The notes beneath the pieces are model-generated. The model saw only the letters and a program-made list of their open reading frames with translations. It made no database searches and was not told the origin of the DNA. A DNA stretch of 64,000 nucleotides. Origin: a virus. A program made the position numbers and the translations under genes. This document shows, in pieces, positions 9,151 to 61,534 of this stretch (position 1 is its first letter; each line of letters starts with the position of its first letter). Where the stretch lies: positions 41,754 through 105,753 of IMG/VR virus record IMGVR_UViG_3300023179_000042. One strand, given 5' to 3'.

Positions 9151-9151
9151 A

Positions 9152-9451
9152 ATGTCAGCGTATTCAAAAAATAGTCCTTATTTTACTACAGACCAATCTA
9201 AAGGGTATCTAGATGTAATCACCTTTAGGGATTTTCCTGGTGAGGATGATGATATACTGTTTACATTAACTAAAAATTATGAATACAGGCCCGACCTCTT
9301 GGCCTACGACTTATATGGTGATGTAGGGTTGTGGTGGGTATTTTCTGTAAGGAACAAGGGGTTTATAAAAGATCCGATCTTTGATATGAAAAATGGTATT
9401 CAACTATATTTGCCTAAGCTAACAACAATAAAATCTGCCTTAGGAATTTAA
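9152..9451 (+). CDS. gp53: Baseplate wedge protein gp53-like (LysM-type)
   Basis: YRPDLLAYDLYGDVGLWWVF motif. Confidence 0.8.
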   Translation: MSAYSKNSPYFTTDQSKGYLDVITFRDFPGEDDDILFTLTKNYEYRPDLLAYDLYGDVGLWWVFSVRNKGFIKDPIFDMKNGIQLYLPKLTTIKSALGI

Positions 9452-31200: not shown

Positions 31201-33029
31201 TTGTAGACAAATTTATCACACCCGGTACGGGCTTTACTGTACAAAATGTTGATGTGTTTGTAAACGGAGTTCAGCTAGCCCGAGGTATGGATTATACCGT
31301 TGACGATGACATTGTTAATGGCATGGCTAATCCTACTATAACTTTAGATAATGAATTAATTTTAACCGAGGCAGTTAAACCTGGTGATGTGCTGGCAATC
31401 GTTGCCAAACCAGACCTTGGGTGGGAATTTGATATTATAAGTGGTAGCATTTATTTTAATGCTAATGCTGAAATAGTTCCTGGGTATATTGGGTATATCA
31501 CTGATTGTGTATTAAAAATTACAACATATACAAACCACGATCAGATGCTAATGAGAACAGAACGATTTGTAGGTAATACATATAGAAGATTTAGAATAAG
31601 CAGACAAGTTCTAAATAATAATTTTGTATGGGTTACTCTTAATAATCAACCGCTGGTTAACAAGTATGATTATATTATCTTAGATGATGGATATACTATT
31701 CAAATAAGTGATACAATTAGAGTCACCGAAGCCGATGAAGTTGTAATTCAATCTTTTAGTACACAAATTTTAGGTTATGATACTCTAGGGTACAGAGTTT
31801 TTAAAGATATGTTTGGAAGACAATCATTTAAGAGATTGTCAAGAACAAATTCTACAACATTGACACAACCATTGAATTATTATGATACCGAAATTCATGT
31901 TGCTGACGCAAGTGTTTTAACACCTCCGTCTTTATACAGAAAACAACCGGGAGTGGTAACTATTTCTGGAGAAAGAATAGAATTCTATAAAGTTGATGGA
32001 AATGTTTTAAAACAACTCCGTAGAGCTACAATGGGTACAGGTGCGAGTTTTTCTCTTGCTTCAAATTCTAAGGTAATTGATCAAGGTATAAATCAAACCG
32101 TTCCGTATTCTGAAGAGATGCTAGTGCAGTCATACTTAACAACATCTACTACAACCTACACAATTTTTAACTACTCCATGGATGATTGGGGTGATGGAAT
32201 AGCTTTATCGCAGCCTTCTACATCAACAATAATAAGTTCTGCCCTCGCTCTTAATGCTTACGGCATTGCTCTTGATTACTATAATAGAGGGCAGTATGAT
32301 GCTCTCTATGATTTAAATGGAGATAGTGTAATTGACCTTCAAGATTTAATCGATTATCAAACTTTAGCCTCAGGCGGATCTTTGCCATATACTCCGTCAG
32401 AGAGTTCCAATTATCAACAGTTATTTGAAGTAACACAAGCAACTTCGCCTATACCAGCTAAAGATCAAATTGCTGTTTACTTTGGTGGTAGATTATTAAA
32501 GAAAGATCCATATTTTTATCACGATACAACTTTGGCCTACGATAGTCCTCAATATAATATTATCGGTACCATGGACAACGAAACAATGCTTTCGACGGTT
32601 ACCACTGTTGTACTAACTTTAGGCGATGGATATATTGTTACTTCGACAAATCAAGTGTGGATTTATACAAATTCTACAGAATTAGACGCGGTCAATGGTT
32701 TTGTCTATAGAGGTTTAAAGTATGCTCCGCCTGAGTTTACCATCAATACATCTACACAGCAAATTAAATTAAATATTGTAGATGGAGTTGAACCAAATAT
32801 CAAATTGTCATTTGTAAAAAAACAATTTAATAGATTGTCGTGTTGGAATAATATTGTGGACGCTAATACAACATTGTCATTGTTAGAAAGTACAACAGTA
32901 CCTGCTAAGTTTTTACAGGCAAGACCGGCCGAACTTCCTGATAGTTATTATTATGGCGGTCCTGATATTTTAACCGATGGAGGAAATCCATTAACTGATA
33001 CCAATTCTAATCCATTAATAGGAAATTAA
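19284..33029 (+). CDS. Giant (4581 aa) baseplate wedge/virion structural protein
   Basis: Follows gp6; FG-GAP-like repeats (LLVGAPG, FVGAP), G-x-GY-xx-P repeats, dockerin/EF-hand-like motif near C-terminus. Confidence 0.7.
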   Translation: MAKNIKSVNLLPETHRTDKNSRFLSSTVDQLIQKPELERINGFIGTKDTPTYNSSNDIYISESTQIRQNYNLEPALVTYSTAGSVVNVVAIDDLTNEINFRGGITDNFDRIYKPKYYAYDPFVDWDKLVNFQEYFWLVTGPQTIEITGRPKNTTSTYTVEVENSQFVFTPSGMSDSILTLYRGNTYNFENLTEQNFYVKFTASPGNTDLYPVNVVSNGTSTGIVKLIVDVNTPSVLYCGGNDKTLLCKIVVKDSREDSTIDIEKDILGKKSYLSGNGIALSNGMKIKFGGTVLPEKYRDNEYIVEGVGEFIRLVDYKDLIPQSVIASNFDDNFDANPFDEYPFDNFKNLPINPEYLTINRASRDLNPWSRYNRWFHKDIITISAEFNNMEPEYPSNLRAQRPIIEFKPNLQLYNFGNIAIPNVDLIDFVTTDPLGQRENTRGLFVDGRRLNEGMTVIFAAAKDDDVRNKVFRATYFQRRKARRLNLEPIQDVIENNCVSINYGTRAGGRCYHYDGSNWKSSQNHTRLNQAPLFDLFDKDGKSYSDKTYYYSNFAGNRVFSYKRGSGTSDSVLGFPLSYRNLNGVGSYLFRNYFMNDSFTLSSGEYDTTSTSFSTAITFLKKNDEKGDQLVNVWRDKEDYQIPVYQLQSYLSGTSTVEINSVKLNNNISFEIEAYNDEKIIPKSDYNILSSGTNYTVNFNNTVTSNVLLKIFTDAPIVGNGYYETPLNLTNNPLNGNITDLTLSEISDHVGTMVNRDTSWSGIFPGTSNLRDLPGIAKYGTRLISNYNPITFAQLFLGSPYYSVESAIKQTAKDYEEFKNNFLTLVATHPDQNSPVSAVDTILKSMVANISKGSAYHNSDMIPFGSHRVRQFTVLSSRRTDYPISLDYNPSKLSNQAVLVYINGVQGWLGRDYIFLDDQNAVRIITPIVANDTIEIREYTDTSGCYCPQTPSKLGLYPAFRPRKYFDDSYIDRPRNVIIGHDGSKMIAYNDYRDDIIIELEKRIFNNIKSKYNPDLLDINSLLPNAFRKTEYSLKEINQILQSDFVTWAGLFGLDYQNNSSFDEANPFTYNYVGTSDTLTSTSLSGFWRGIYKYFYDTDLPHKSPWRMLGFYDRPEWWIAEYGPSPYTSGNDILWQDLENGYIRGGSNPGYNPIYARPGLTNIIPVDESGKLIDPSVLLITNSTPYDRRQNWKFGDHGPVETVWRNSSSYPYAIQRLLLLTKPAEYCSVFFDVSRLIKNAAGQWVNADTNRFLNLKDVALFGENNTLAAGYSVWVIEQGLKRNSQFVYRLRNRIDNFTVNLFHKVGGFVDKNKLRIIIDSVSPSSTDPGAILPQENYLLHLNVSNPVEAVAASGIVIQKQQDKFIVKGYDRYRPYFTIYQPIRNSNTPAITIGGISESFVDWNYNDSSGSTSLSAEDLTTANTATGNNFYQQGQIVRYLNKFYRVKVSHTAEANFNPSFYAAIPQVPIKGGATVQIAKSYSKQETLIPYGTMFDNIQDVYDVIIGYGQWLVEQGFIFDNFNQELNTVLDWRFSAKEFLYWSTQNWAPNSIITLAPFSPQVKFRKQTAVTDNFLNGNYDYTILTADGSSLPSKNLSVNRDDDITIIEPTNTNNGIFFIYVRPVQKEHGMIFDNTTIFNDIVYDPETGYRQKRMKLVGFRTSNWNGDYSSPGFVYDKGVVNRWEQFTLYRYGDVVTWNGKYYSAANSISGSSKFNIGDGWVLLDKAPTPGLIPNFDYKISQFEDFYSIDIDNFDAGQQKMAQHLIGYTPRVYLDNIVPDAISQYKFYQGYIREKGTRNPLTKISKSVTNDQTGSINFDEEWAFRVGQYGSYTTFRELEFRLTEGSFIENPQIINFVDTQPTQKPNDLVYYIDNNKFAIQPSEYSSSNVFFTSSSTFKNPGFKYPTAGYVNLNDITYTAYNENSLLDIANNGSIKDGDVIWLGFKTNGDWDVLRYENSPFKIIGVFVNSPGVTITFTTDYFHDFKVGDTVSVVNFNNQVNGIYKIIDIPQLNQFTVNSSLTYINNEPLLSPGLIYRFVSQRFKKFDDIPVDSKLLALPYGSKFWIDENNEGKWEVYTKTKNYSQNSVISRSQPLNQQLGTSIAKSKNDSTLLVGAPGYQYYLDNGRVFVYDKIGSTLTFKLSYTLNSDRIQYHDSSISPVTEFGYKVDYIPDEFNNSGYGLFIVGAPATENVYYNTVSPGAISYAHPDNTNTSTWGLAGVVKISSVDPLTQKEKAEVVLSNPWPTDRDRFGAEVAHYGNLLLVGAPGTNSTGTGRVFSYSIDTTGYYTTSSAQTVIGVTTSMSVTYTGRKELPAEYTAVDSDGVMFGHSISISDEEYFKYAVGGPGYKSENGLVAIFGMYSPSANQVIQPPTNVSGTKKFGHKVVITPTQLFVSAPLQRNSDLSYGAVYIYDYDIDAGAFNTSTYQIITNPLPGSKLNFGQDLSYIESDNSIVISSTGDFTPKFNLDKGNTTFDQKSTKFYNSIRKTGTAYVYSRKDTRYVLADELKIDNYTAFTDFGYTVHATENEIFVGAPSYSSTQTSKVYEFNKIDTTVQSWDLSTKQDDVISLNEFRQIHIFDTKKDIIVDYLDVVDPLKGKIPGLADQEIKYKAAFDPAVYSIGIAGTVVDINTNWLDEHVGELWWDLSTLKYVWYEQGDLSYRKNNWGRLFPGATIDVYEWIGTPLLPSEWSSQADTAAGLTNNISGQPKFADNSVVSVKQIYDSVTNSFSNYYFYWVKNKVIIPNVKNRRISSYQVASLIADPTGYGYKYASIIAPDAMTLANSNGYAVDTHVHLNITYDKIDNKIPKHTEWILLNEGSENSMPPRMLERKLFNSLIGKDTFGHTVPDPSLNERTKYGIGIRPQQTLFKSRLTALRNLIEFSNNVLIKEQIVGMKDLTRLLSQEVPPDQYSGLWDKTVEDLEGLSVINTTKLVQAEVTCTVADGTIRSVQIVNSGYGYLIAPIITVIANENDINTRTVKIETEIDEFGRLVSTNIVDGGRGFTVPPTLTVRPFSVIVTSDSTFNGKWTLFTWDKEVQQWNRIRTQKYNTPLYWNYIDWTSSDFDQFRDISKTVNELFELNYLNLPKNSYIKINNPGDNLPIILEKVTPSKSNTFSNGYNIVYKQGGTIQFSNGIWDIYNNDLGYDKNNSYDQTLYDQTIETELRNILIALRDDIFVDELKVYWNKFFFTAVKYAMSEQPLLDWAFKTSFINVVNNAGLLDQRPVYKLNNSEYYENFLKEIKPYRSQIRTFTNKHKILEPSQSFTTDFDSPSYFNRTTKQFETISETDALSDVYPWKAWKDNNSFIIDSISVGNGGQNYILPPSVIIETAPGDLGSGAAAQAYISSGQVNKIVVTNPGVGYKKAPLIRLEGGGYADLVPAVAYPIMANNKVRTNTIKIKFDRISTQNQIGDDFVVDSFNCDGTTSIFYLNWCARLDRSKISVTIDGAYVLSSEYIIQNYEEEFNGYTKKYSKLQFVNRIPEIGKVLVVKYAKNLELYSAAERVLQYYSPKSGMPGKKLDQVMSGVVYPKTQLQTLGFDYTSKWDNQYEINNVPVYYSGFETAAYGDDVSYYTLIKTSSTTTVGSNTLTLATVEGIVVGQNVNISNTLTNKFSSSTVLVTAINQTSKTVTLNTSVASTVFPGDSVEFWTQTTNFTALDTIIDSGYPGFTLTNTGSALQYALGINPEDITIDGDGFFTPDTSFATEEFVPGESSDSIGINVYTKSGVGAPLIYTGKIDVPSKRNKTELFVPYPPPTADSIVVTFNTQILQRTEQLFFAATLDSPYYYYDFINNKIIIYKRSVNGVLGYSVVTVGGEGVVDHGSTVVYNQTDGQVDSLAYYDDIKLAYVTVNGEIIGTTSTSFTNKYYDLTYSNESNKRASVHVHNLNTNTTSTIQAWFFDSDAATFNEVRSQTFVYDNVSTATNIEINRPPGVIEPFAPQVILEVSVDNGVTYRRVMPPFTAYYNIVNTAITTYSINNSRNFVDKFITPGTGFTVQNVDVFVNGVQLARGMDYTVDDDIVNGMANPTITLDNELILTEAVKPGDVLAIVAKPDLGWEFDIISGSIYFNANAEIVPGYIGYITDCVLKITTYTNHDQMLMRTERFVGNTYRRFRISRQVLNNNFVWVTLNNQPLVNKYDYIILDDGYTIQISDTIRVTEADEVVIQSFSTQILGYDTLGYRVFKDMFGRQSFKRLSRTNSTTLTQPLNYYDTEIHVADASVLTPPSLYRKQPGVVTISGERIEFYKVDGNVLKQLRRATMGTGASFSLASNSKVIDQGINQTVPYSEEMLVQSYLTTSTTTYTIFNYSMDDWGDGIALSQPSTSTIISSALALNAYGIALDYYNRGQYDALYDLNGDSVIDLQDLIDYQTLASGGSLPYTPSESSNYQQLFEVTQATSPIPAKDQIAVYFGGRLLKKDPYFYHDTTLAYDSPQYNIIGTMDNETMLSTVTTVVLTLGDGYIVTSTNQVWIYTNSTELDAVNGFVYRGLKYAPPEFTINTSTQQIKLNIVDGVEPNIKLSFVKKQFNRLSCWNNIVDANTTLSLLESTTVPAKFLQARPAELPDSYYYGGPDILTDGGNPLTDTNSNPLIGN

Positions 33030-49337: not shown

Positions 49338-49784
49338 TTAACTTACTTCGGTCCGCCCGTCATCACGCAGTGCTCGATTAACATAGCCTGCTCCTCTGCG
49401 GCTCATGTCAACTCCTTCTTCGGTACCTAAATTACGACATAATTCGTTAAACCATTGATCCACAATTTCTTCATCGGATCCTCCGGTATATCCAGCACTT
49501 CGAAGTTGAAGAATAAAATACTCGTTCCAATCTAATTCAAAAAAACCGTTACGAACATTTTCTTTATTAACATGAGTTTCAAGAACAGCCACCCAGGGCT
49601 CTTTCTTTTCAGTGGCCAGTTCTTTAGGTGTAAGTTTAGCGACACGCTCTGATTCTTTTGCCAAGGCCGCTGCTTCAGCGGCCGCTGCCGCTTGCTGAGT
49701 TGCTTCGGCAGCTTCTTTTAATGCGGCCTCAGTTTTGGCCTTAATTTTATCAATGCCGAGTAGCTTTTCAATAAATTTATTCAT
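49338..49784 (-). CDS. Hypothetical protein
   Basis: Likely start MNKFIEK overlapping queE stop; GFFELDWN motif. Confidence 0.7.
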   Translation of the reverse strand: MNKFIEKLLGIDKIKAKTEAALKEAAEATQQAAAAAEAAALAKESERVAKLTPKELATEKKEPWVAVLETHVNKENVRNGFFELDWNEYFILQLRSAGYTGGSDEEIVDQWFNELCRNLGTEEGVDMSRRGAGYVNRALRDDGRTEVS

Positions 49785-50632
49785 TAGGTCCCCCACTCGT
49801 TCTTAAACAATGGCACTTGTAGTCTGTCGCTATAACGCCATCCTTTTTTCATTGCTAGTAAGGCTACATTGCGATTATTCAATGAATAGACGCTTTCAAC
49901 TCCGCCGACCGGCATCAGATAAACGGGACCTTTAAATCCAGCTTCTCTATATTCTTTAACTGCCTGTTCGGCATCTTGTAGGTCTTGTTCATTGGTTATA
50001 ACAAACTTTAAATAAACATAACCAAAGTTTTCATAATCAACAACCACAGCAGGTTTAATAGCATCTTTCCAAGGTTCGCCGCTAACAGGTAATTTAGCAC
50101 TTACACTAAAAGTAATTTCTCTGTCAAAATGCTCATGTTTCCAGCGACTTAGATATTCTTTAAAGTCTTTGGTAAGACGCATTGTACCATTTGTTTCAAA
50201 GGTAATTTCTTTAAGACCATTCATTTTAGGATTATCGATAAGATCTGGATACTGCTTTTGCCAACCTAATAGTGGTTCGCCGCCGGTGATTACCAAATGT
50301 TCGTCGCGCCATTCTTTGTACGGAAGCGTATCCATAATCGCGTCGGCAATTGAATCAGTAGATAGAAGGGGAGATAGATGCTTAAAGCGAGGATCCCAGC
50401 TAGCGTAACTATCACAGCCTGTACTAACCAAAGGAAGGGATTTGTACTCGGTGTACTGAGTCGGGTCAATATTGTTTGCTTCTTCACTTAGTTCTCCTCT
50501 AGGCATTCCAAAGCCTTGACATTTAAAATTACATCCAAAAGTGCGAAGGAACACACTAGGCACGCCCATGTAGCGACCTTCTCCTTGAATGCTATAAAAT
50601 AACTCTGCTACTTTAATTTTGCTTTTTACCAT
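49784..50632 (-). CDS. queE: 7-carboxy-7-deazaguanine synthase (radical SAM)
   Basis: ELFYSIQGEG..G.PSVFLRTFGCNFKC...CDS, VITGGEPLL and ETNGT motifs. Confidence 0.92.
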   Translation of the reverse strand: MVKSKIKVAELFYSIQGEGRYMGVPSVFLRTFGCNFKCQGFGMPRGELSEEANNIDPTQYTEYKSLPLVSTGCDSYASWDPRFKHLSPLLSTDSIADAIMDTLPYKEWRDEHLVITGGEPLLGWQKQYPDLIDNPKMNGLKEITFETNGTMRLTKDFKEYLSRWKHEHFDREITFSVSAKLPVSGEPWKDAIKPAVVVDYENFGYVYLKFVITNEQDLQDAEQAVKEYREAGFKGPVYLMPVGGVESVYSLNNRNVALLAMKKGWRYSDRLQVPLFKNEWGT

Positions 50633-51012
50633 TTTCTATAATTGCCTTTTCCGGGAATTACATTTCTAACACCGCCAATTGGATCTTCGACATCACCATC
50701 GTATCTAGGTATTAGGTGAATGTGCGGCCACTCAACGGTTTGTCCTGCTACCTTGCCATAGTTTAATCCAACATTGAACCCATCCCATTCGCCATTTTTT
50801 ATCATTGTTTTGCCATATCGAACTGCGTCTTCAAATGCTTCACTTAAAATTCCTAAGGTGTTATATTTAGGCACAAACAATAAATGCCCAGGATTTACAG
50901 GATATTTGTCTCTATATACTACAACATGAAAGTCATCACGAACAACCTCTGTCCAGGGTGCTGTACTATCGTCGATGTGATCGGGCACATCCATAACTTT
51001 ATTATCTCTCAT
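50626..51012 (-). CDS. HIT family nucleotide hydrolase
   Basis: DKYPVNPGHLLFVPK and AGQTVEWPHIHLIPR motifs. Confidence 0.9.
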   Translation of the reverse strand: MRDNKVMDVPDHIDDSTAPWTEVVRDDFHVVVYRDKYPVNPGHLLFVPKYNTLGILSEAFEDAVRYGKTMIKNGEWDGFNVGLNYGKVAGQTVEWPHIHLIPRYDGDVEDPIGGVRNVIPGKGNYRKW

Positions 51013-51470
51013 TTAATTTTTGCTCTTTCTTTTAGGTACACGTCATTATGTATCCAATTGTTGTTAACTAAAAAACCCCATTCACGCTTTTGAGGCCCAG
51101 GCATAAACAGCGTCCAGCAATCTACACCTTCACAAAGTTCGATACGATGATAAGAAGTAGCATGACATACACGGAAATGACCAGGGCCACGCCACATTCT
51201 TTCTTCACCAATCTTTTGCCCGAGGCCGTTAAATTTTGCCACCCATTCATAATATCCGCCCTTTAAAATTAAAGTAGCGTAAGGCCATGGATGATCATGC
51301 ACATCATCGGGGTCTGACTTAAGGAACTTGTGAAGAAACACATTGAAGGGGAAACGCTTTCTATCTTTAAGAAACAGGTAGTAGCGTTCAAGGTATGGTT
51401 CATTGCTCTGTCTATCTAAAACAATTCGTTTACGGCCGATTCGTTCAAGCCATGTTAGAAACCATTTCAT
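51009..51470 (-). CDS. Cupin-fold metalloprotein
   Basis: HDHPW...GGYYE...YHRIEL metal-binding pattern. Confidence 0.7.
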   Translation of the reverse strand: MKWFLTWLERIGRKRIVLDRQSNEPYLERYYLFLKDRKRFPFNVFLHKFLKSDPDDVHDHPWPYATLILKGGYYEWVAKFNGLGQKIGEERMWRGPGHFRVCHATSYHRIELCEGVDCWTLFMPGPQKREWGFLVNNNWIHNDVYLKERAKIK

Positions 51471-52434
51471 GTTTTTTCATCCAATCGTATGTTGTTTCTA
51501 CAATTTTTAATAGAGTGCTGTTTAGAGGAGTCCATCCAGCATCTCTGATAAAATCAGTAGGGTCTGCTACAAGTTCGGCCGGATCTCCAACTCTCTGTGG
51601 TCCAAAGATAATTTTAGTATGCTGTTTGGTCACAGCCTTTACAGCAGCCACAATTTCAAGATTAGAAAATCCTCGACCTGTACCAAGATTATATGATCTA
51701 AATGTACCTTTGTCAAATGTATTTGCCAAAACAACAGCTTTAACATGAGCATCAGCTATGTCTGATACATGGAGATAATCTCTGATACAAGTTCCATCTC
51801 TTGTTTTGAAATCGTTACCGTTTATAGTGATTGGTGTATTTTCTAAAATACTTTGTACAACTCTTGGAACTAAATGTGTATCATTCCATAAATTGCCTAA
51901 TTTTCCATCTAAATCGCAACCGCAGGCATTGAAGTATCTAAGTGCTATAGATTTAAAACCATGGGCACGAGAATGATCGTTAATAATTTGTTCGCAGATT
52001 TTCTTACTATGTCCGTACGGACTAACAGGAATACCAGATGCTGCTTCTTTGATAGGCAATGTACAATTATTTCCGTACACAGCAGCACTACTACTAAAAA
52101 TAATATTGCCCTGCCAACCCAGTTTGGCAAGATCGTCTAGCATTATATTTGTTCGAGCGCAGTTGTTATTGTAGTACTCGCCGGGGTCAGCCATGCTAGG
52201 TCCTACAAGGCTTGTTCCAGCTATGTGTACAATATTTTTACTTTTATTTTCTTTAACTATTTTAGGAACAATGGTAAAGTCGTCTATAATGAGCTGATCA
52301 ATAAATTGAGCAGACTCGGGGATAGTCATTTCTCTATCTACACCGATAACTGTATAGCCTAAAGAATGAAAGGCTTTAGCGGTTTGTCCTCCGATAAAGC
52401 CCATAGCGCCTGTAATAATAACCGATTTAGACAT
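51445..52434 (-). CDS. galE: UDP-glucose 4-epimerase
   Basis: ITGAMGFIG, FSSSAAVYG, YGHSK, LRYFNA and DGTCIRDYLHV motifs. Confidence 0.92.
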   Translation of the reverse strand: MSKSVIITGAMGFIGGQTAKAFHSLGYTVIGVDREMTIPESAQFIDQLIIDDFTIVPKIVKENKSKNIVHIAGTSLVGPSMADPGEYYNNNCARTNIMLDDLAKLGWQGNIIFSSSAAVYGNNCTLPIKEAASGIPVSPYGHSKKICEQIINDHSRAHGFKSIALRYFNACGCDLDGKLGNLWNDTHLVPRVVQSILENTPITINGNDFKTRDGTCIRDYLHVSDIADAHVKAVVLANTFDKGTFRSYNLGTGRGFSNLEIVAAVKAVTKQHTKIIFGPQRVGDPAELVADPTDFIRDAGWTPLNSTLLKIVETTYDWMKKHEMVSNMA

Positions 52435-52705
52435 CTGTTTTCTTTTTAGATTTTTTGCTTTCTACACTTGCTATAGCTTCTCTTACATCTCGTTGTAATG
52501 CTCCCCGGTCGGATTCAAATTCTATGCGACCATCTTCAAATTCACGCCTAACACTGTGACTTCCGATTGTAAGTTTGGGCCATTCAGTTGATACTGATTT
52601 CTTTTTTGTCTTCTTGGGTTCGGTTTCACCTAGTGTTACTTCTGCCGCTAATTTAGATATTTCTGATATAATTTCTTTTTCAGTTTTCTTTTTTCTTGTT
52701 GCTAT
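52427..52705 (-). CDS. Unannotated 92-aa basic protein with ATA start
   Basis: GAGG SD then ATA GCA ACA AGA AAA; 92 sense codons to TAA overlapping galE ATG; fills the guaC-galE gap. Confidence 0.6.
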   Translation of the reverse strand: MATRKKKTEKEIISEISKLAAEVTLGETEPKKTKKKSVSTEWPKLTIGSHSVRREFEDGRIEFESDRGALQRDVREAIASVESKKSKKKTDV

Positions 52706-52709
52706 AATA

Positions 52710-53807
52710 TTACCTCACAAACACATCGTTAATTTGACGATTAACACGAATGAATGTTGTACACTTGCTTAACTGCTTTAAAGTGGCAGCACCGACATAG
52801 GTACATGTACTGCGTAGTCCCCCTAAGATATCTAGTACAGTATTCTTTACAGGACCACGATATGGTACTTCAACAGTACGTCCTTCACTACTTCGATATT
52901 CAGCAACACCTCCGTGGTGTTTTTCCATAGCGGTGTCACTGCTCATACCATAGAATTGAACAAATTGTTTTTTGTAGGCATAGAACTCATAAGTCCCAGC
53001 ATTGTGATTTGAAATAAATTGCTCACCGTTTTCGTTAAAATATTTTGTGATTACTTTGCCACCGCCTTCATCATGCCCGGCCAACATGCCGCCTAGCATT
53101 ACGAAGTCCGCACCAGCGCCGAAAGCCTTAGCAACATCACCAGGGCAAACACATCCACCGTCAGCAATAATATGAGCACCAAGACCGTGAGCGGCATCGG
53201 CACATTCAATAATTGCACTAAGCTGTGGGTAGCCCACACCAGTTTGGATACGAGTAGTACAAACGCTACCAGGGCCGATGCCCACTTTAATAATATCTGC
53301 CCCACGGTAAATTAACTCCTGTGCCATATCTGCAGTGACAACATTTCCGGCAATAATAGTACAGTACGGAAATGACTTACGAACTCGCTGAACAAAATCA
53401 CCGAAATGCTCACTATATCCGTTAGCAACATCAATGCAGATAAAATGAAGTTCAGGATAACCATCTAATATATTTTGTAACCTTTCGAAATCATCTTCGC
53501 TTGTACCTGTACTAACAGCCATATAGTTGCCACCAATGGCTTTAACTGTTTCTTCTAAATCAGTATATTCATAGTTTTTGGTAAGGCATGTGAACAGTCT
53601 ATGATCGTATAACGCTCGAGACATTTCCAATGTCCCTACACCGTCCATATTAGCAGCCATGATAGGAACACCAGTCCATTCCCAACCGCTATGCTTAAAC
53701 TTGTATGTACGATTTAGATCAACATCTTTACGACTTGCTAATGTACTACGCTTTGGGCGAATTAGTACATCTCGAAAATCAAGTTTAATTTCGTCTTCGA
53801 TACGCAT
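52710..53807 (-). CDS. guaC: GMP reductase
   Basis: [49 protein letters not shown] and YRSSEG motifs. Confidence 0.95.
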
Positions 53808-55006
53808 TAGTACTTACTCTCTTTGCTATACTTGCGATAGTCGGTGCTCATACGCCGCCACTGTTCGCCTTTGCCTTCCATAATATCGCAAATACGATCA
53901 ATAGTTCCGTCTGTCCAGTCGCTAATATGTCCGACCTTGTTATGAGGTTCTTTTAATAAACGAATTAGTTTGTTTAAAGCATCTTTTATGCTCCAGGGAA
54001 CATAGAGCCGTTCTGGATCATTGGAAAAGATTTCTGGGAAACTACGATAAGCAGGATACAAGACATTACAACCCAAAGTGTCAGCCTCTGAAACAGTGTT
54101 AGAGACCCAATCCTGAAGGGCACAATTAAAAAGAACGCGAGTATCATTGAGCAAAGAATAGTAGTCATTTTTACTTAGATCTTCGTAGATTGTCAGTTGT
54201 CCTAGGCTTTCTAACTTTCGTGTCCTTTCCATATAGCTGTTATTATTGCTTTTTAATTTAGCACCGCTAAACAAAGCAAATTCAACACGCGGAAGTTCTA
54301 CACCTTTGTCTAATATATTTTGCCTTAGCTTGTTATAGGATTCAATTAAATCCATATAAAAGTCAGGTTGCTTTTCTTGATCCCACCGAGCTGCAAAACC
54401 AACACGCATAGATCTTTCATTAAATGGAATAATTTCTTTTACTCGCCCGCGAACTTCTGCCTTACCAAACGCTAACCCACTAATGTTATAGATCGGTGCT
54501 TCCCAGCCAGCAACCTTCATGTGCATGACCATTTCTTCGTTGCTGGCAAGAACTCCGGTTACAAATGAGTCCACCATCTTTTCGTAGAGACCCATCCACT
54601 TGCTCATGCCCCAAACATGAACAAAGTCATCGGGGTCGATACTTTGTGCTAGGCAGCGAACAAAGATTTTTGGTCTTAGATTTTCTGGAACTTGATTAAG
54701 AATATAAGGAAGACTTTCAATACCAGGTTGAAACATGTCTTCAAAGTAGACAACATCTTCACTGGTAACTTCTCCGGCCTTCATCATACGCACAAGGTTC
54801 ATAAGTTGACTCATGCCAAAGTATGTGCGTCCATGTGCGTCTAGAACTTGCCCGGTTACAATGGCCTGATCGTTGCTGAGTGTTTCACCGGGTACCAATA
54901 TATAATTGATACCGCGGCGTTTAAATACAGCTTCGTTCCAGTCTTGTAACTGTAATGTGTAACGGGCCTTGTAGGGCTCAAGACCCATGTAAAATAGTTT
55001 TCTCAT
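53807..55006 (-). CDS. GT-B fold glycosyltransferase
   Basis: [13 protein letters not shown] and [29 protein letters not shown] donor-binding region of GT4-like enzymes. Confidence 0.75.
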
Positions 55007-55245
55007 TAGTTGTTATTATTGTTATAACGAGGCTTAAACTCTTTTTTACCTAGATATGGCTTTCTTTCGCCATTCCGGGCTGGGCGAGCAAAATCCTTGT
55101 ATTCCTTAGATTTATATAAATCTTTAGGATCGTAATTTAGTAGATTAAATCGACAGTGATCTAACCACGCATCAAGATCGTCAAAAATCTTTTCGACTTC
55201 GGGCTTCATACGAAGAGTCTTTTGAATATAAGCAGGTTGTGCCAT
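55006..55245 (-). CDS. Hypothetical protein
   Basis: TAATG-coupled ORF in operon. Confidence 0.7.
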   Translation of the reverse strand: MAQPAYIQKTLRMKPEVEKIFDDLDAWLDHCRFNLLNYDPKDLYKSKEYKDFARPARNGERKPYLGKKEFKPRYNNNNN

Positions 55246-55250
55246 TTTGT

Positions 55251-55652
55251 TTATTTGTGATAATGTAAAGATACAGGGAATTTAATGAAGCAACCGTTTT
55301 CGTTATCTTCACTAACGCTAATCCAGGTTTCACGGCCTGGATATCTTGCGATGATTGTTGCGTGAAGATCACGAGCAATCATTTCGCAGGATTTATAGTT
55401 GAGCTCAAGGGTGCCGTCGGAGTAGCACTTCTCGAGCCAACGCTTAAACTGAATAAACTCAATATCGCGATCGTCATGAAACACTTCAATATAGATCTTA
55501 AAATGAAAGATGTGACGATGTGGAGTAGACAGGAACGATACATTGTATTCGTCGTTTGTATTTAGATTAGGATCTGTTGCCGCTGCCGGATAACAATGAA
55601 TACCCTCTTTGGTAAAGGTTACCCAGATCATAGATTTTTCTTTTTCACTCAT
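55251..55652 (-). CDS. dpdL: QueD-like T-fold protein, DpdL-type (putative CDG decarboxylase)
   Basis: EGIH, LSTPHRHIF (LxxxHRHxF instead of QueD CxxxHGH), SCEMIA and VSEDNENG motifs. Confidence 0.65.
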   Translation of the reverse strand: MSEKEKSMIWVTFTKEGIHCYPAAATDPNLNTNDEYNVSFLSTPHRHIFHFKIYIEVFHDDRDIEFIQFKRWLEKCYSDGTLELNYKSCEMIARDLHATIIARYPGRETWISVSEDNENGCFIKFPVSLHYHK

Positions 55653-56185
55653 TTAATAATTTCGTCCTTGGTATATTTAGACCAGTTAGTAAATTTATCT
55701 CTGCTTTTTAGATCGTGAACACTATGACACCAAACTCCAGGATTGCTGTAGTTAAAATCGCTATCGTCAAGTTTAAGTATAGCATTATAGTTTAGTAGTT
55801 GTATATAGGGTAATTTTGCCGAAATCATCGGAATAAACTTATTTGACTCACAAAGTCCTGATTCAGCAAGACCTTCGACGCAAGAAATATCTAAATCAAG
55901 TGTACACCAAAAATCTTTTTCAAGAAAATGATAAATCATAGTTTCCCATTTAGCCCATTCTCCGCCGTCATTTACTTTGAGATTAGGAAAACTTTGATTG
56001 GCACCAAAATAGATATGATTAATGTCTTTTAGCGTAACCTTTGAAAGCCATTCTTGTATTTCAGAGACGGGTTGAACTCCTACTACAAATAAGGTTTTCA
56101 TACCATAGGCAGCAGTATGCTCAACTTCTTTACCAACAAAGAAAACAACATTTTCTTCAGTACCTTCGGTGTAGACTCTTTTCAT
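55649..56185 (-). CDS. Hypothetical protein in deazaguanine cluster
   Basis: HIYFGANQSF and NPGVWCH motifs; between DpdA-like and DpdL-like genes. Confidence 0.7.
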   Translation of the reverse strand: MKRVYTEGTEENVVFFVGKEVEHTAAYGMKTLFVVGVQPVSEIQEWLSKVTLKDINHIYFGANQSFPNLKVNDGGEWAKWETMIYHFLEKDFWCTLDLDISCVEGLAESGLCESNKFIPMISAKLPYIQLLNYNAILKLDDSDFNYSNPGVWCHSVHDLKSRDKFTNWSKYTKDEIIK

Positions 56186-56186
56186 T

Positions 56187-57737
56187 TTATTCCCTTACAG
56201 AATTTTCCATAGCAACAAGTGTCTCGTCATTAGGATCATCTACATCAACTTCATCGACACTTGTAACTTCTTCAACAGCAAATAAACTGTGGAATTTATT
56301 ACGAGCAGGACCACCTTGTAGTCGAGCGCCGTCAAGGCTTTGTAGAAATACAGATGCTTGACTGATTAGATCAAATGCTTCTGCCTTGTTCTTTGTGTTA
56401 AACAATTCTTCAACAAAAGTTTCAAAGTAAAGAATGTTTCTTGGGACAAAAGGACTTGTCTCATCTTTGTTAGCATTTTTACTGCTAAGTTTTTCCCATT
56501 GGCGCCAAGTTTTGCTAAATTTTGCGTGTTCAATATCAGAAAGATGGTTTGCCTTTTGTACAGCATTAATATGCTGATAAACATTATGCCCCATCATTAG
56601 TGCGTAGGCAAAACTATCCCACGAGGTTTTACCTTCTTTGCCAACTTTATTTAGATCGCCTGGAGCATAATAGCAAATATCGCCCATTGTCAGTCTGCGA
56701 CCGATTTCGCTTTCAAACGGGAATGGGATGTTGCTGCCTGCAAGTGCTTTGTTATCTGGGGCTTTGTCCATAACAGTACTCCACTTTTTGGGCGTGTGGA
56801 CTGGATCTGTGTAGCAGAGTCCGTGTGCTGTTGCGACAAACGGTGAGGCGCAGTCAAAAGATATGGTAATTTCTTCATTAATATGTTTCCTAATTTGTCG
56901 TTGAATAGAGGTCAGATAACAACTCCAATCTAACTGAGCGGTACCCAGGAAGTGGATCCAATTTTTGCCTTTGAGCAAACCATCTTCTCTTAAGGTCATT
57001 AGACGCTTGAGAGTAATATCCATTTTACACATGTTAACGCCACCGAATGCCCAACCTTCGGCAGCTTTATCACCCCATATAGCAGGATCGCTGTATTCTT
57101 TAACTCCTTGATACCACTCTTCGGCCATATCCCAATCGCTACCTTGTAGCACGTTTAAGAACTTGGTATGTCCTAGTCTACGCTTTAACCAGTATTCGTT
57201 ATTAAATCTTGTTTTTTCAAGACAATCTCTAATGCTTTTTAGACCTGTTCTTTCTTTGTTTTCATCTAAACATGCCCATGTAGGAACATCTAGCATCATA
57301 GACCAATCTGCTGTAAATTCTAACCAGGCGAGAATGTCATCTCGGATCTTGTTTGCAGCAGGACCGTCGAAGTTTTTCCAATCAAATTGAATAACACCTT
57401 TGCCAATTTGGTAACCACCTGAGTCTCCTAGTATCATTGTGTTATTTTTGTCTCGGCTATGTATCATGCTATCTTGTGTGATAGCCTTATTTAGATCTAG
57501 CTGTGCGTGACCTGCTGAGTACAAGGCATACTTGTAATAGAAATATCCTTGTTCGGGATTAAGAAAATTCATTCCTTCGATGCCACGATCAAATCCTTTA
57601 GGAATACGATCTTGTGGAACAAAGTCTCCTAGCCTCTGCTTGGCAATATAGGTACTGTAGAAACTGCTGATTGCTGGTAGATATACAGCATAGTCTCTCT
57701 GTAAGGGTGTTAGGTCAACCGGTGGTCTTTTCTTCAT
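56187..57737 (-). CDS. dpdA: TGT-fold DNA transglycosylase (DpdA-like)
   Basis: ILGDSGGYQ, MLDVP, LNVLQG, IHFLG and SFDCASPF motifs; clustered with queE. Confidence 0.8.
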   Translation of the reverse strand: MKKRPPVDLTPLQRDYAVYLPAISSFYSTYIAKQRLGDFVPQDRIPKGFDRGIEGMNFLNPEQGYFYYKYALYSAGHAQLDLNKAITQDSMIHSRDKNNTMILGDSGGYQIGKGVIQFDWKNFDGPAANKIRDDILAWLEFTADWSMMLDVPTWACLDENKERTGLKSIRDCLEKTRFNNEYWLKRRLGHTKFLNVLQGSDWDMAEEWYQGVKEYSDPAIWGDKAAEGWAFGGVNMCKMDITLKRLMTLREDGLLKGKNWIHFLGTAQLDWSCYLTSIQRQIRKHINEEITISFDCASPFVATAHGLCYTDPVHTPKKWSTVMDKAPDNKALAGSNIPFPFESEIGRRLTMGDICYYAPGDLNKVGKEGKTSWDSFAYALMMGHNVYQHINAVQKANHLSDIEHAKFSKTWRQWEKLSSKNANKDETSPFVPRNILYFETFVEELFNTKNKAEAFDLISQASVFLQSLDGARLQGGPARNKFHSLFAVEEVTSVDEVDVDDPNDETLVAMENSVRE

Positions 57738-58080
57738 CTTTAGCCAAATAAGTAGTAATTTTCAATTGTTCTTCTGCACGTTTTAGGTTTTCATAGGCAG
57801 CTTTGACAGCAGGATTATTTTGAATTAAATTTTTTATTTCTAATTCTTCGTTACGCTTTTGTCTTGCCCAATCTAGCAATTCCTCAGCCTCTGGAGTTAG
57901 GCCAACAGTAACATAAGAATTACCAATTTGTTGCCACATATTACCATCATAAACCTCTAGGTTATTGTTATAATACCTAGTCATTCCTGCCATAGGTGCG
58001 CCATTATTTTGATAGTTTGTAGAAGAAGTCGAGCCTCCACTTACCGTCATATAACGGCCACCTATTATGCCTTTTATCAT
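57715..58080 (-). CDS. Hypothetical protein
   Basis: ATGA-coupled to clamp; NPAVKAAYE coiled-coil C-terminus. Confidence 0.7.
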   Translation of the reverse strand: MIKGIIGGRYMTVSGGSTSSTNYQNNGAPMAGMTRYYNNNLEVYDGNMWQQIGNSYVTVGLTPEAEELLDWARQKRNEELEIKNLIQNNPAVKAAYENLKRAEEQLKITTYLAKDEEKTTG

Positions 58081-58811
58081 GCGTTTGCTGGAATAATATA
58101 CTTGTAGGTAGCCAAACCACTGTCTAAGGTAATCTGCATAGCGGCTTCATCACTGAAACTAATGGTTGTGTTATTAACATCAGCAGCCTTTAGGATAGCC
58201 AACACAGGTGCTACAGGCCAAGTCCAAGCCTTGCTTAGTTTACCAGCGACATTGGTAGCAAATACAAATTCGCCTCCGTGTGTGCTAACATCGCCGAATG
58301 TAAATTTAAGATTGTTATTGTCAACGCGGGCAAGGAAATAAGTATGTTCGGTGTTAGCACCTGCTTGAAAAGCAAATCGCTGAATAGCATTTAGTTCTGG
58401 CTTGACTTCAACATGCCACTTTACACCCTTGAATACAATAGTTTTCAACTTTTCGTTAATGACTTCTGTACTCATAAACTTATAGTCATTCTTAAAATCG
58501 CCGGCTTTGTTTTCAAAGTGGATACCTACAGGAACTTCGGCACCATTTCGTTGGCCTGTTTGAATTTCAATCTTGGCATCTTTTTGATATTCGGAACCAT
58601 CAAGGATATAACGAAGTTTTTCTAACTGTGGCATACCAAACACTCCGATCATTTCTGGATACGGGTTTGCTGTTTCGGCAAACATAATCACAGTACGATC
58701 ATCAGCCATGCTAGTAATCGCGGTCTTGTCTTCGTCGCCAGTGACCTTAACGATGTTAAGGAAGCCTAATTTCTGTGTGTGGGACACAATGTCTTGTAGA
58801 ATATCTTTCAT
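58077..58811 (-). CDS. gp45: Sliding clamp (gp45/PCNA-like)
   Basis: 244 aa, follows DNA polymerase, C-terminal YKYIIPA as in clamps. Confidence 0.65.
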   Translation of the reverse strand: MKDILQDIVSHTQKLGFLNIVKVTGDEDKTAITSMADDRTVIMFAETANPYPEMIGVFGMPQLEKLRYILDGSEYQKDAKIEIQTGQRNGAEVPVGIHFENKAGDFKNDYKFMSTEVINEKLKTIVFKGVKWHVEVKPELNAIQRFAFQAGANTEHTYFLARVDNNNLKFTFGDVSTHGGEFVFATNVAGKLSKAWTWPVAPVLAILKAADVNNTTISFSDEAAMQITLDSGLATYKYIIPANA

Positions 58812-58828
58812 ATAAATCTCCTTGTTTA

Positions 58829-58857
58829 ATAATATTTAGATTTTGTGGAAAAGTCAA
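58829..58857 (-). promoter_or_regulatory. Sigma70-like promoter heading clamp/deazaguanine operon (nested TAAATA)
   Basis: TTGACT-N17-TATTAT. Confidence 0.65.
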
Positions 58858-58864: not shown

Positions 58865-61534
58865 TTATTCAAAACTGAATAAACTGTTGAATGTGTTGCT
58901 ACGAGTAGTAGAATCAAGATCCCATTCAAGCACGCCAATTAGGTTATCCAGTTTATTGTTAATAATAACTGTTTCCATTTCGCTGTGATCAAATGGTAGT
59001 TCTTGGAACCATTTGGGTAATCTGAGTTCGTCTGTAGGGTATGCGATACTGGTATATCCAAGAGGATTGTCTTTGAGTTTACAGACAATTACCTTCATAC
59101 CGTCGACAATCTGTAGACTATACTTGTCTCCGTTCATGCGGCGTAGCGTATTCCAATTGATACTGGCTCGCACATGTCCGGGCATGTTTGCTTTGCCTAA
59201 CTTCTTTTCTTTTTCTTGATACTCGGTAATGTTGTTGGCTCGTTTAGGCGAACCTTTTTCCCATCCGGGTCGAGCCTTAAATTCCGTTCTAAATTCATTG
59301 ATGCGTTCAAGGATCTCTGACTCTTCAGCACCATTTAGAACTCGTGTTAGAATTTCTTCCAAGAACTTCTGCATAAATTCTGGAGTATCACTACGCTTAA
59401 GGTCCAAACCCATGGCTTTGATCTTACCTGGCTTGCCATCTACATCTGTACGCTTGCCTTCCTTGTCATAATACAATACAGCATAACGCTTTTTGGTAAT
59501 GAACAGGCCTTTGATAGCAACAATTTCACGACCAGCTTTGATAACTTCCCCACGACTTTTAGGACAATGGAATGCGTTGAGCATAAAGTCTGGAAAGGTT
59601 CCGTTTACTTCGGCTGCTACGCTGTCATATACCTGGATGGCAGTATCTTTATTCCAGGGAATTTCTCCACGATCAATTTCTTTCTTTAATGTCGAATGGG
59701 CACTAAAGTACGCTGAGTCAGTATCACCGTAGATAATACTTCGACCTACATGGTTGTATTCGCCTGTGATTACTTCATTTATCTTCGAGGCCATGTGGCG
59801 AGCAATGCTTCTCCCGGTAAGAGTTGTGGATTGGCCAATACGATTATCAAAGAACCTACAACCAACATTAAGAATAGCACCGTATAGGCTATTGAGGTTA
59901 ATTTTTTTAACCAACTGTCTTTTATCCCAATATTCTTCTTCAATTTTGTTCTCCGCTTTGATCGATTCTTTTAATTTGGCCTGCATTTCTTTACGCTCGG
60001 CGTACCATCGTTTTAGAAGACCGGGAATAATCCCTTCGTGTTCGTAGGTAAAAATTGTTCCATTGGCGCTTAACATCCACGGCTTGTTACTTTCAAAAAT
60101 TAGTTGATAAATTTCAGCACCGCTCATAATACTGGTTTCGCTATTTTCCCAATCTACTGTAATATCGTTGGCACGATCTTGATTCATTACAAATTCGTAT
60201 TCATTTACAGCAAATTTTCCTTCCCATGCGGCAGCAAAACTATCTCCTCGGGCCATTTTACTTTCAATTTCTGACTTAGTATAATCTTGTCGAAGTTGAC
60301 CAACAATAGTTTCTGGGCCCATGTTAAGAGCTCGAATAACTGACGGATAAAGGCTGTTAATATCCATGGATCCGATAAAGTCGTGTAGTCCTTTTTTTGG
60401 ATACGCAACATACGCACCTGCGGCTTGTGTATCTTCGGTTTCACTGCGTCGAGGCCTGCTTGGTACAATCATACCTCGACGATGTGCTTCGTTGACAATA
60501 GCCTGCTCGGTCACAGCAACCGCGCCCATTGTAGTTTGTAGCAACACCGTATTTTCGTGAGCAATGGTGTTGGCAAGATCGAGGAACTTTAGCTTCTTAT
60601 CAATTTTGTTAAGAAGAGCACAGTCTTGCCGGTTGTATTCGATAAACTTACGAAAGTCATTGTTATAAAGTTGATCTAATGTTCCTTCATAAACAGTTTT
60701 ACGTTCTCCTACTTCCATTTCTCCAATAGCATCTAGTCGATAGCTATGGCGTTCTTCATATGTGTATTTTCTATAAAGTTCAAGATAGTCAATGTGAACT
60801 CTGCCAATTAAGTCATAGGTTACAGCAGTCTTGCCATATTTCTCATATTCACGCTTTCTCGGAAGCTGATCCCAAAGACAAAATTTACGAGTGTCTTCTT
60901 TGCTTAGAACCTTGGTCACACGATTAACAGTATATGGAATATCAAACCCCTCTGAGTTCCATCCTGTTAATACGTCAGCATCTTCAATTAATTCTAAGAA
61001 AGTTTCTAACAGTTCAGCTTCGTTACTGAACAATATAGTATTTGGAAAGTCTTTGATTTGTTCTTGTGCCTGCTCCATTGTAAGTGTTTTGGGCGGAACA
61101 GCAAGACAAACTAGTGTATCTAACCATTGTAAGTGAACAGCAATAGCAATAATTGGCATGAAAGCATCTTCTGGAGACGCATAGCCGCGTTCTGGATCAA
61201 AGTCTACCTCAATATCAAAAAATGCTACATTTAGTTTTGGTGCTTCGTTGCCTAAATAATTTTCTTCAAGACAACGGAATACAGGATTCATGTCGCTTTC
61301 GTATAAGCGATGATTGCTGTAAATTCTTTGTTCTTTAGTGAATTCCTTGAATGTTTTGGCAGTGACTCTGCTTAGGCTTTCACCAAATATGGATTTGTAC
61401 TTACCCTTTTGATCTGGATAGTAAAATACATATCTTGCTGGATAGTCTGTAAAAAGTCTACCCTTTTTTTGATCTCGTTCAACAACTTGAACAATATCCT
61501 TATCTCGATCCCATCGAGCATCGACGTAACTCAT
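58865..61534 (-). CDS. gp43: Family B DNA polymerase
   Basis: ExoI FFDIE, ExoII WNSEGFDIPY, ExoIII YNRQD, motif A DINSLYPS, motif B KINLNSLYG, motif C YGDTDS. Confidence 0.97.
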   Translation of the reverse strand: MSYVDARWDRDKDIVQVVERDQKKGRLFTDYPARYVFYYPDQKGKYKSIFGESLSRVTAKTFKEFTKEQRIYSNHRLYESDMNPVFRCLEENYLGNEAPKLNVAFFDIEVDFDPERGYASPEDAFMPIIAIAVHLQWLDTLVCLAVPPKTLTMEQAQEQIKDFPNTILFSNEAELLETFLELIEDADVLTGWNSEGFDIPYTVNRVTKVLSKEDTRKFCLWDQLPRKREYEKYGKTAVTYDLIGRVHIDYLELYRKYTYEERHSYRLDAIGEMEVGERKTVYEGTLDQLYNNDFRKFIEYNRQDCALLNKIDKKLKFLDLANTIAHENTVLLQTTMGAVAVTEQAIVNEAHRRGMIVPSRPRRSETEDTQAAGAYVAYPKKGLHDFIGSMDINSLYPSVIRALNMGPETIVGQLRQDYTKSEIESKMARGDSFAAAWEGKFAVNEYEFVMNQDRANDITVDWENSETSIMSGAEIYQLIFESNKPWMLSANGTIFTYEHEGIIPGLLKRWYAERKEMQAKLKESIKAENKIEEEYWDKRQLVKKINLNSLYGAILNVGCRFFDNRIGQSTTLTGRSIARHMASKINEVITGEYNHVGRSIIYGDTDSAYFSAHSTLKKEIDRGEIPWNKDTAIQVYDSVAAEVNGTFPDFMLNAFHCPKSRGEVIKAGREIVAIKGLFITKKRYAVLYYDKEGKRTDVDGKPGKIKAMGLDLKRSDTPEFMQKFLEEILTRVLNGAEESEILERINEFRTEFKARPGWEKGSPKRANNITEYQEKEKKLGKANMPGHVRASINWNTLRRMNGDKYSLQIVDGMKVIVCKLKDNPLGYTSIAYPTDELRLPKWFQELPFDHSEMETVIINNKLDNLIGVLEWDLDSTTRSNTFNSLFSFE

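Follow-up and report, generated by a model that had tools for sequence, protein, structure and literature searches.

Gene order and the 7-deazaguanine genes

The window analysed here is a 64-kb stretch of viral DNA, the final part of the 105.7-kb IMG/VR virus record IMGVR_UViG_3300023179_000042 (CheckV completeness ~30%), and its source is an uncultured giant phage, a relative of Pseudomonas phage PA5oct. On the minus strand, directly after the polymerase gene polB and from 58811 down to 49784, it holds a run of 13 genes in which predicted enzymes of 7-deazaguanine DNA modification stand beside a glycosyltransferase (GT) and a sugar gene. The genes are joined by overlaps or gaps of a few bases and follow the order clamp, h121, DpdA-like, h178, DpdL, h79, GT4, GuaC, a small open reading frame (ORF), GalE, cupin, HIT and QueE. 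A preliminary description of the same DNA had listed 13 co-oriented, mostly overlapping genes and had read them as a 7-deazaguanine DNA-modification operon interleaved with sugar-transfer genes; all 13 were recovered in place and on the minus strand.

Megablast of the module region against cultured phages returned no match. The run was compared with 160 related IMG/VR loci and with six cultured-phage groups (PA5oct-like phages, ACP17, Xanthomonas X1/BUDD, Burkholderia BCSR5, Synechococcus BUCT-ZZ01 and the window's own clade). For the module counts, the ORFs between DpdA and QueE were clustered in the 80 loci that span both genes (IMG/VR plus PA5oct). More than 500 IMG/VR contigs carried the DpdA-like gene and about 600 carried the GT.

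The DpdA-like gene (56187–57737, minus strand) encodes an acidic protein of 516 amino acids (aa). As a single sequence it matched nothing in Pfam, PHROG or NCBIfam, and phmmer against the PDB gave nothing useful; it was recognised from tRNA-guanine transglycosylase (TGT) motifs and from profile alignments. Among 49 DpdA-like homologues, 25–48% identical to the window protein, D105-S106-G107-G108, G228, H262 and D295 were invariant, and Q110 and D150 were nearly so. When the family profile was searched against the PDB, nearly all top rows were TGT, but with an E value of only 0.36; the profile was in register with Z. mobilis TGT at the first three motifs (DSGG.Q, LD and GG). By hhalign, the family aligned with ACP17 gp123 at 96.4% (E 1.3e-9), with the 'queuine tRNA-ribosyltransferase' of X1 at 95.6%, with a 416-aa protein of BUCT-ZZ01 at 91.4% and with the short DpdA3 of phiST at 79%. 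These alignments place the 516-aa protein in the TGT/DpdA superfamily as a candidate long-form DpdA, for which an exchange of guanine in DNA is predicted.

The second deazaguanine gene (55251–55652, minus strand) encodes a 133-aa protein with a QueD-like T-fold. Its residues 40–48, LSTPHRHIF, fit the published DpdL signature LxxxHRHxF, which stands in place of the CxxxHGH of QueD. The protein matched phrog_17812 at 1e-30, and tblastn showed 54% identity to the DpdL of ACP17 (6e-33) and 33% to phiST CGPG_00067 (7e-6). By sequence, then, the protein is DpdL; decarboxylation of 7-carboxy-7-deazaguanine (CDG) is a predicted activity, even for the founding members of the family.

At the far end of the run (49784–50632, minus strand) lies a gene for a 282-aa radical SAM enzyme that matched phrog_2076 'QueE-like' at 2.7e-53 and, through its N-terminal motif, a solved QueE structure in the PDB at 8e-6. 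Five NCBIfam QueE models were matched at 5e-17 to 5e-11, all under their cut-offs (best 62 bits against 260), and because of these scores the protein is called QueE-like rather than an equivalog. C34, C38, C73 and G117-G118-E119-P120 were invariant in the family, and E10, F12, S14, Q16, G17, E18 and G19, which make up the N-terminal QueE motif ExFxSxQGEG, were nearly so. The protein is a candidate CDG synthase by its sequence. Its cysteines form a Cx3Cx34C pattern, all invariant in the phage group, which amounts to a 34-residue insert within the cluster-binding motif.

Between the DpdA-like gene and dpdL lies h178 (55649–56185, minus strand), which encodes a conserved 178-aa protein found in 53 of the 80 loci and in ACP17, where the homologue is 28% identical (E 1e-17; 6.4e-23 by hidden Markov model). 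The single sequence had no match in Pfam, PHROG or NCBIfam, and its best ESM Atlas score, 0.77, was below the useful level. The AlphaFold2 (AF2) model of h178 (pLDDT 86) had no Foldseek match at E ≤ 0.001, and a wide VIA search reached at best Z 6.6. QueE chains appeared in that search at Z 5.4–6.4, within the noise band, and a kinship of h178 with QueE found no support, with hhalign against the QueE family at 0.2%.

With these genes, the phage almost certainly places a base of the 7-deazaguanine type in its DNA. The modification module of the preliminary description is thereby supported, as one of the DpdL type that lacks QueC.

A glycosyltransferase linked to DpdL and its exchangeable subtypes

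The gene at 53807–55006 (minus strand) encodes a 399-aa protein whose AF2 model (pTM 0.78) has a GT-B, retaining-type fold. Foldseek matched the model to BshA, MshA and PimA in the PDB at E 2e-10, and VIA aligned 300–340 of its residues with these and other GT4 enzymes at Z 20–23. Among 40 members of the family, Glyco_trans_1_2 was matched by 14 and Glycos_transf_1 by nine; these GT1-clan matches were below the Pfam gathering score except the best one, at 5e-6. The family profile had no match among PDB sequences, and the assignment therefore rests on the fold and on the weak Pfam matches. As modelled, the protein is a GT4-type glycosyltransferase. The family comprises four subtypes of less than 25% mutual identity, of which the window carries subtype 0; R207, E211-K212-Q213 and E307 are invariant across all four. 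R207, K212 and E307 presumably correspond to the nucleotide-sugar-binding residues in the C-terminal domain of GT4 enzymes, an R/K pair and the glutamate of the EX7E region.

The 80 loci showed a fixed order: DpdA, h178 (where present), DpdL, h79 (where present), GT, a variable stretch of 0–12 kb, and QueE. A protein of the GT family stood right after DpdL or h79 in every one of them, including PA5oct with its gp167, and the loci that had been collected through the GT and had enough upstream sequence all contained DpdL. The GT profile also matched the neighbour of DpdA and DpdL in PA5oct (gp167, 1e-87), ACP17 (gp124, 2e-72), BUCT-ZZ01 (3e-143), X1 (9e-38) and BCSR5 (7e-35). The co-occurrence of GT, DpdL and DpdA, which had been put forward as a check, was thus found at one position throughout the set and again in cultured phages, and the GT is very likely part of the deazaguanine-modification system, as the preliminary description had supposed. 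In BUCT-ZZ01 the DpdA/DpdL/GT cluster has one more glycosyltransferase gene (6010–7350 of the locus; 447 aa, Glyco_trans_1_4), a hint at a two-sugar decoration in this cyanophage.

DpdL loci of a different kind were also found. phiST and Vibrio D479, which have a short DpdA3, and Aeromonas Ahp1, Vibrio Bakedbeans and Rhizobium RHph_I1_18, which have no recognised DpdA nearby, showed no match to the GT family within 7–9 kb. There seem to be two architectures, a short DpdA3 without a GT and a long DpdA with one. The Bakedbeans locus has a 383-aa gene (8227–9378) in which DpdL is fused C-terminally to a part of ~258 aa; it lies beside FolE, with no GT nearby.

The four GT subtypes occupy the same position in the module. 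In the window's own DpdA lineage (67–87% identity), most loci carry subtype 1; the window and seven further loci have subtype 0, which elsewhere is characteristic of a lineage with a far lower DpdA identity (34–47%). The presence of subtype 0 inside a lineage that mostly has subtype 1 therefore indicates that the GT was exchanged in place and not lost. The sugar-nucleotide genes of the variable stretch changed with the subtype: GalE was present in 16 of 44 loci with subtype 0 and in none of 33 with subtype 1, and the corresponding counts were 24/44 and 0/33 for a cytidylyltransferase, 7/44 and 0/33 for DegT, and 0/44 and 7/33 for a UDP-sugar dehydrogenase. Within the close clade the pattern persisted, with GalE in four of seven loci with subtype 0 and 0/35 with subtype 1. 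That a single position takes different GT subtypes, and with each its particular sugar-nucleotide genes, suggests that the sugar has diversified in an arms race.

The GalE of the window (51445–52434, minus strand; 329 aa) is a UDP-glucose 4-epimerase by TIGR01179 (289 bits, equivalog cut-off 262) and shows SSSAAVYG and YGHSK, the S...YxxxK triad of short-chain dehydrogenases/reductases. The tie between GalE and GT that had been proposed for this run holds in the comparison, since GalE accompanies the window's GT subtype only; GalE very likely serves the GT, and a supply of the donor sugar is its probable role.

From what was observed, namely the gene identities, the conserved module and the covariation of GT subtype with sugar genes, we infer the following route, including each chemical step, the acceptor and the persistence of the sugar in DNA. 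In this PA5oct-like jumbo phage the module belongs to the replication gene block, with which it is probably co-expressed. QueE would convert 6-carboxy-tetrahydropterin to CDG, from a precursor provided by FolE and QueD; neither is in the 105-kb fragment, and they would therefore come from another part of the phage genome or from the host. DpdL would convert the QueE product to the base that is inserted, by decarboxylation to 7-deazaguanine if the prediction for phiST applies, and the long-form DpdA would exchange guanine in the phage DNA for this product. The GT4 enzyme, obligate in the long-DpdA module, would then add a sugar from a nucleotide-sugar, either to the deazaguanine already in DNA or to the free base before its insertion, and GalE would supply or balance the donor as UDP-Gal/UDP-Glc or their N-acetyl forms. 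The outcome would be a 7-deazapurine with a sugar attached, which would shield the DNA from restriction enzymes.

A sugar-decorated 7-deazaguanine in the phage DNA is the best reading of the locus, and we put its probability at about 0.5. Several points weigh against it. 7-Deazaguanine has no hydroxyl group, so that the acceptor atom is unexplained, and no phage with the module has a known base chemistry. The GT is acidic (pI 5.9), unlike a typical DNA-binding enzyme, although the DpdA here is acidic too, and its nearest solved structures are GT4 enzymes that act on small-molecule or polymer acceptors, not the DNA glucosyltransferases of T4. FolE, QueD/PTPS, QueC and Pfam TGT had no match anywhere in the 105.7-kb record, and the lack of FolE and QueD counts here. 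The 80 loci come mostly from one large phage group, and Fisher association values overstate their independence. Finally, the DpdL–QueE interval is a general hot spot for cargo; among relatives, a subtilisin-like autotransporter, a BI-1-like membrane protein and genes that are likely of homing type occur there, so that for accessory genes position says little by itself.

The clearly unrelated cargo of this interval would suit an explanation in which GT and GalE are present merely because the replication block is a tolerated insertion site. They would then act on something else, such as virion proteins, the host envelope or a host metabolite, and the DNA would contain plain 2'-deoxy-7-deazaguanosine (dDG) or another sugar-free deazaguanine. 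Such DNA exists: phiST and VP1 show that DNA can be fully substituted with plain 7-deazaguanine (PMC10516641; 10.1101/2025.10.29.685425). The structural matches of the GT are to generic GT4 folds, and cupin, GuaC and HIT, all optional, also turn up in phages where the matching genes are annotated without reference to deazaguanine. Still, we hold this explanation to be unlikely. A hot spot leaves unexplained that the GT follows DpdL or h79 in 80 of 80 loci, that it was replaced in place by subtypes less than 25% identical rather than lost, and that the same family stands beside DpdA and DpdL in ACP17 and in cyanophage, Xanthomonas and Burkholderia phages, where the surrounding genes differ.

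The nearest structures of the GT include several enzymes with small acceptors (BshA, MshA, SenB, LmbT and, at Z 20.5, a cyanobacterial tetrahydrobiopterin glucosyltransferase), and FolE, a PTPS-type enzyme and a GT4 enzyme together follow the logic of pterin-glycoside synthesis. The acceptor of the GT might accordingly be a small pathway molecule (the free deazaguanine base, CDG or an intermediate of the pterin type). Its glycoside might serve as a transient handle or as an intermediate made soluble or activated, or might be a metabolite in its own right, and the base that ends up in DNA would bear no sugar. The inactivity of ACP17 DpdA and DpdL in E. coli would fit a missing upstream step of this kind. 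A transient handle, however, gives no reason for the sugar to diversify together with its own nucleotide-sugar genes, and phiST makes dDG without any GT. The pterin glucosyltransferase itself was rejected as an identity for the window's GT, as it came only at rank 22 and was no closer than dozens of GT4 enzymes. We regard a small-molecule acceptor as improbable, the more so than a tolerated insertion, and retain a sugar on the DNA base as the preferred reading.

Optional genes and the surroundings of the run

The variable stretch between GT and QueE contained, in relatives, FolE, QueD/PTPS, MazG, a phosphoribosyltransferase (PRTase), a UDP-sugar dehydrogenase, cytidylyltransferases, a class II aldolase and a DegT fragment. 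In the window, GuaC, cupin and HIT are optional accessories. Irrespective of the GT subtype, the three are often found side by side (loci L006, L008, L056 and L070–L072), and they may form a small purine-handling set.

GuaC (52710–53807, minus strand; 365 aa) is a GMP reductase by the NCBIfam model (556 bits, equivalog cut-off 397), has the catalytic loop and is 61% identical to Salmonella GuaC. Relative to bacterial models it has an insert of ~20 residues around 265–285, and the NCBIfam match is split in two. The gene was found in 12 of the 80 loci and also in the phages XacN1, Xoo-sp13, RAS14 and Cr30. This optional, host-like enzyme, shared with other jumbo phages, gives no support to the idea that GuaC takes part in the base chemistry; most simply, it would rebalance the purine pool after guanine has been expelled from the DNA, and the PRTase of relatives may do likewise.

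A GMP reductase in the cluster nevertheless raises the possibility of a pre-replicative route at the nucleotide level, as for toyocamycin or tubercidin, in which a deazaguanine base would first be turned into a nucleotide, GuaC would, like ToyE, reduce the 7-deaza-GMP, the polymerase would incorporate the resulting deoxynucleoside triphosphate, and the TGT-like protein would have another role. ToyE of toyocamycin synthesis is a GuaC homologue, and relatives carry a PRTase and a MazG-like pyrophosphatase in the same interval. This route is very improbable on the gene contents. The window's GuaC passes the strict GMP reductase model and is close to the enterobacterial enzyme; GuaC and the PRTase occur in only 12/80 and 17/80 loci, against a TGT-like protein that is universal and keeps its catalytic motifs; and neither PRTase nor MazG was found in the 105.7-kb record. 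Published work, moreover, puts all known phage deazaguanines after replication, via DpdA. The exchange of guanine by DpdA, with a sugar added by the GT, is thus kept as the favoured course.

The cupin (51009–51470, minus strand; 153 aa) has an HxH...H site and matched phrog_4786 'cysteine dioxygenase' at 1.2e-37; against PDB sequences it reached only E ~0.9, with Cupin_2 proteins. Most loci with GT subtype 1 have it (30 of 33), but few of those with the window's subtype 0 do (five of 44). Unrelated phages of Mycobacterium, Gordonia and Burkholderia, where its matches are annotated as hypothetical or cysteine dioxygenase genes, often carry it, as do those of Xylella. A protein found mainly with the other GT subtype and widespread elsewhere is therefore no required hydroxylase for the window's GT, and the hydroxylation step that had been assigned to it found no support. 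The HIT-family nucleotide hydrolase/transferase (50626–51012, minus strand; 128 aa; Pfam HIT 3.6e-9) scored well below the cut-offs of the NCBIfam HinT and ATP adenylyltransferase models and was present in 11 of the 80 loci.

Between guaC and galE, the small ORF of the earlier gene list proved a genuine open frame (52427–52705, minus strand) for a very basic 92-aa protein, with an ATA start, not ATG, GTG or TTG, behind a GAGG Shine-Dalgarno sequence. Its homologues (cluster c11, 'MATRKKK...') start with ATG and lie at varying places of the variable stretch in 30 loci, which suggests a small mobile or cassette-boundary gene. The h79 gene (55006–55245, minus strand) encodes a basic 79-aa protein (pI 9.4; cluster c4) that is present in 66 of the 80 loci and, as a single sequence, matched nothing in Pfam, PHROG or NCBIfam. 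h121 (57715–58080, minus strand; 121 aa) likewise had no match in these three databases and is kept in most related loci at 37–56% identity.

The first gene of the run (58077–58811, minus strand; 244 aa) matched phrog_12062 (unknown function) and is homologous to PA5oct gp170 (34% identity); Pfam and PDB sequence searches gave no match. Its nearest ESM Atlas clusters are PCNA/gp45-like (feature score 0.93–0.98; TM 0.62/0.85 to a gp45-slide_C cluster), and by these look-alikes it is a putative sliding clamp. Directly upstream of the module lies the family B DNA polymerase gene (58865–61534, minus strand; 889 aa; Pfam DNA_pol_B 5.6e-39 and DNA_pol_B_exo1 1.2e-20), whose product is 52% identical to the PA5oct polymerase. 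A coupling of modification to replication through the clamp, as had been suggested, is not borne out by this arrangement: the module is located in a replication gene block, as it is in ACP17 and X1.

A sigma-70-like promoter candidate (58829–58857, minus strand; TTGACT-17-TATTAT, 10/12) lies in the 53-bp gap between polB and the clamp gene, where a promoter had been placed before. The site is indeed present, but the region contains 47 such sites against 39.5 ± 7 in shuffled sequences, that is, no excess, and the promoter is hence only plausible. A perfect 12/12 site (TTGACA-17-TATAAT) occurs within the galE coding sequence (51688–51716, minus strand); it could be an internal promoter for cupin, HIT and queE or could be due to chance. 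Elsewhere in the window, the structural gene block contains a single ORF of 4581 aa (19284–33029, plus strand).

Wider significance and comparison with known systems

Considered beyond the window, the same genes allow a broader reading, to which we give slightly less than even odds: that in a very large and widespread group of phages a glycosylated 7-deazapurine stands at the G positions, as the first purine of any DNA to bear a sugar. The group would include many jumbo phages from freshwater and the sea, T4-like phages, and cultured phages of Pseudomonas, Acidovorax, Xanthomonas, Burkholderia and Synechococcus. The acceptor that plain 7-deazaguanine lacks would, on this reading, be made or presented by the long DpdA, DpdL and the 178-aa protein, and the sugar would be varied by exchange of GT4 cassettes along with their nucleotide-sugar genes. 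If true, it would add a new class of natural DNA base, explain why DpdA and DpdL alone failed in E. coli, identify the modification of the therapy-relevant PA5oct phages and provide new enzymes for labelling DNA at G. With more than 8000 GT protein clusters at 90% identity and 911 DpdA-like clusters at 50% identity the module is very common, and the base would therefore be abundant in nature. Phages available in culture allow an immediate test of the reading. What the window itself contributes is the in-place exchange of GT subtypes with their sugar genes, the division between short-DpdA3 and long-DpdA architectures, and a link to the PA5oct experiments.

Among cultured phages, the PA5oct-like Pseudomonas jumbo phages are the nearest relatives. 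PA5oct (Wroclawvirus) has the window's gene order in gp162–gp170 (polB, clamp, gp168, gp167, gp166, gp162, exonuclease), with identities of 42% for the DpdA-like gp168, 52% for the DpdL gp166, 32% for the QueE gp162 and 53% for the exonuclease; gp166–gp168 are annotated as hypothetical in the PA5oct record. Unlike the window, it carries another GT subtype, and its cluster is without GalE, GuaC, cupin and HIT. PA5oct DNA withstands restriction enzymes with G-containing sites and is cut by nucleases that sense hypermodified DNA (PMC12191111), which is an experimental hint in favour of the sugar-bearing reading. That study names QueE and PTPS for PA5oct, not DpdA, and left the base chemistry undetermined.

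The T4-like phage ACP17 belongs to another virus family, yet has an h178-like protein, a long DpdA, a GT-family protein, DpdL and QueE in one run, as in the window. Its cluster reads FolE-gp122-gp123-gp124-gp125-QueE, with FolE and QueD adjacent, unlike the window; the BFVD/UniProt table lists the GT as 'glycosyl transferase family 1 domain'. Expression of ACP17 dpdA and dpdL in E. coli gave no dDG, and the authors proposed that additional enzymes may be required (PMC10516641). We took ACP17 gp123 as the long DpdA; it may be the product of the authors' 'dpdA'.

phiST DNA has been shown experimentally to contain plain dDG, and its pathway is predicted to decarboxylate CDG to 7-deazaguanine via DpdL (Cui, Hutinet et al., NAR 2023, PMC10516641). 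Fully substituted plain 7-deazaguanine DNA was also found in Vibrio phage VP1 by high-performance liquid chromatography–mass spectrometry (10.1101/2025.10.29.685425). phiST shares with the window a QueC-less set of QueE, DpdL (LxxxHRHxF) and a DpdA of the TGT superfamily, beside the polymerase gene, and the FolE, QueD and MazG of its system recur in the cluster of the window's relatives. Its DpdA3 is short (259 aa), however, and has no glycosyltransferase within 7 kb, whereas the window has a 516-aa DpdA, of remote similarity to it, with a GT4 enzyme and a 178-aa protein built in.

Our literature searches turned up no account of DNA with a glycosylated deazaguanine. None of the eight phage deazaguanines published so far bears a sugar, and we know of DNA sugar decorations only on pyrimidines (5-hydroxymethylcytosine, 5-hydroxymethyluracil and thymine derivatives). 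A sugar on a 7-deazaguanine derivative does occur in animal tRNA, as mannosyl- and galactosyl-queuosine, and the mannosyltransferase is a GT4-like GT-B enzyme. There, the substrate is RNA and the acceptor is the cyclopentenediol of queuosine, which the window's pathway cannot make, as it has no QueC, QueF, QueA or QueG.

In T-even phages, GT-B enzymes glucosylate 5-hydroxymethylcytosine from a UDP-sugar, and the sugar varies among relatives and protects against restriction. The base there is a pyrimidine with a hydroxymethyl acceptor, and the enzymes belong to other GT families; the T-even alpha- and beta-glucosyltransferases were not among the top 50 structural matches of the window's GT. In its logic, as far as it can be read from the genes alone, the proposed pathway resembles the T-even system: a GT-B enzyme, a non-canonical base and a UDP-sugar.

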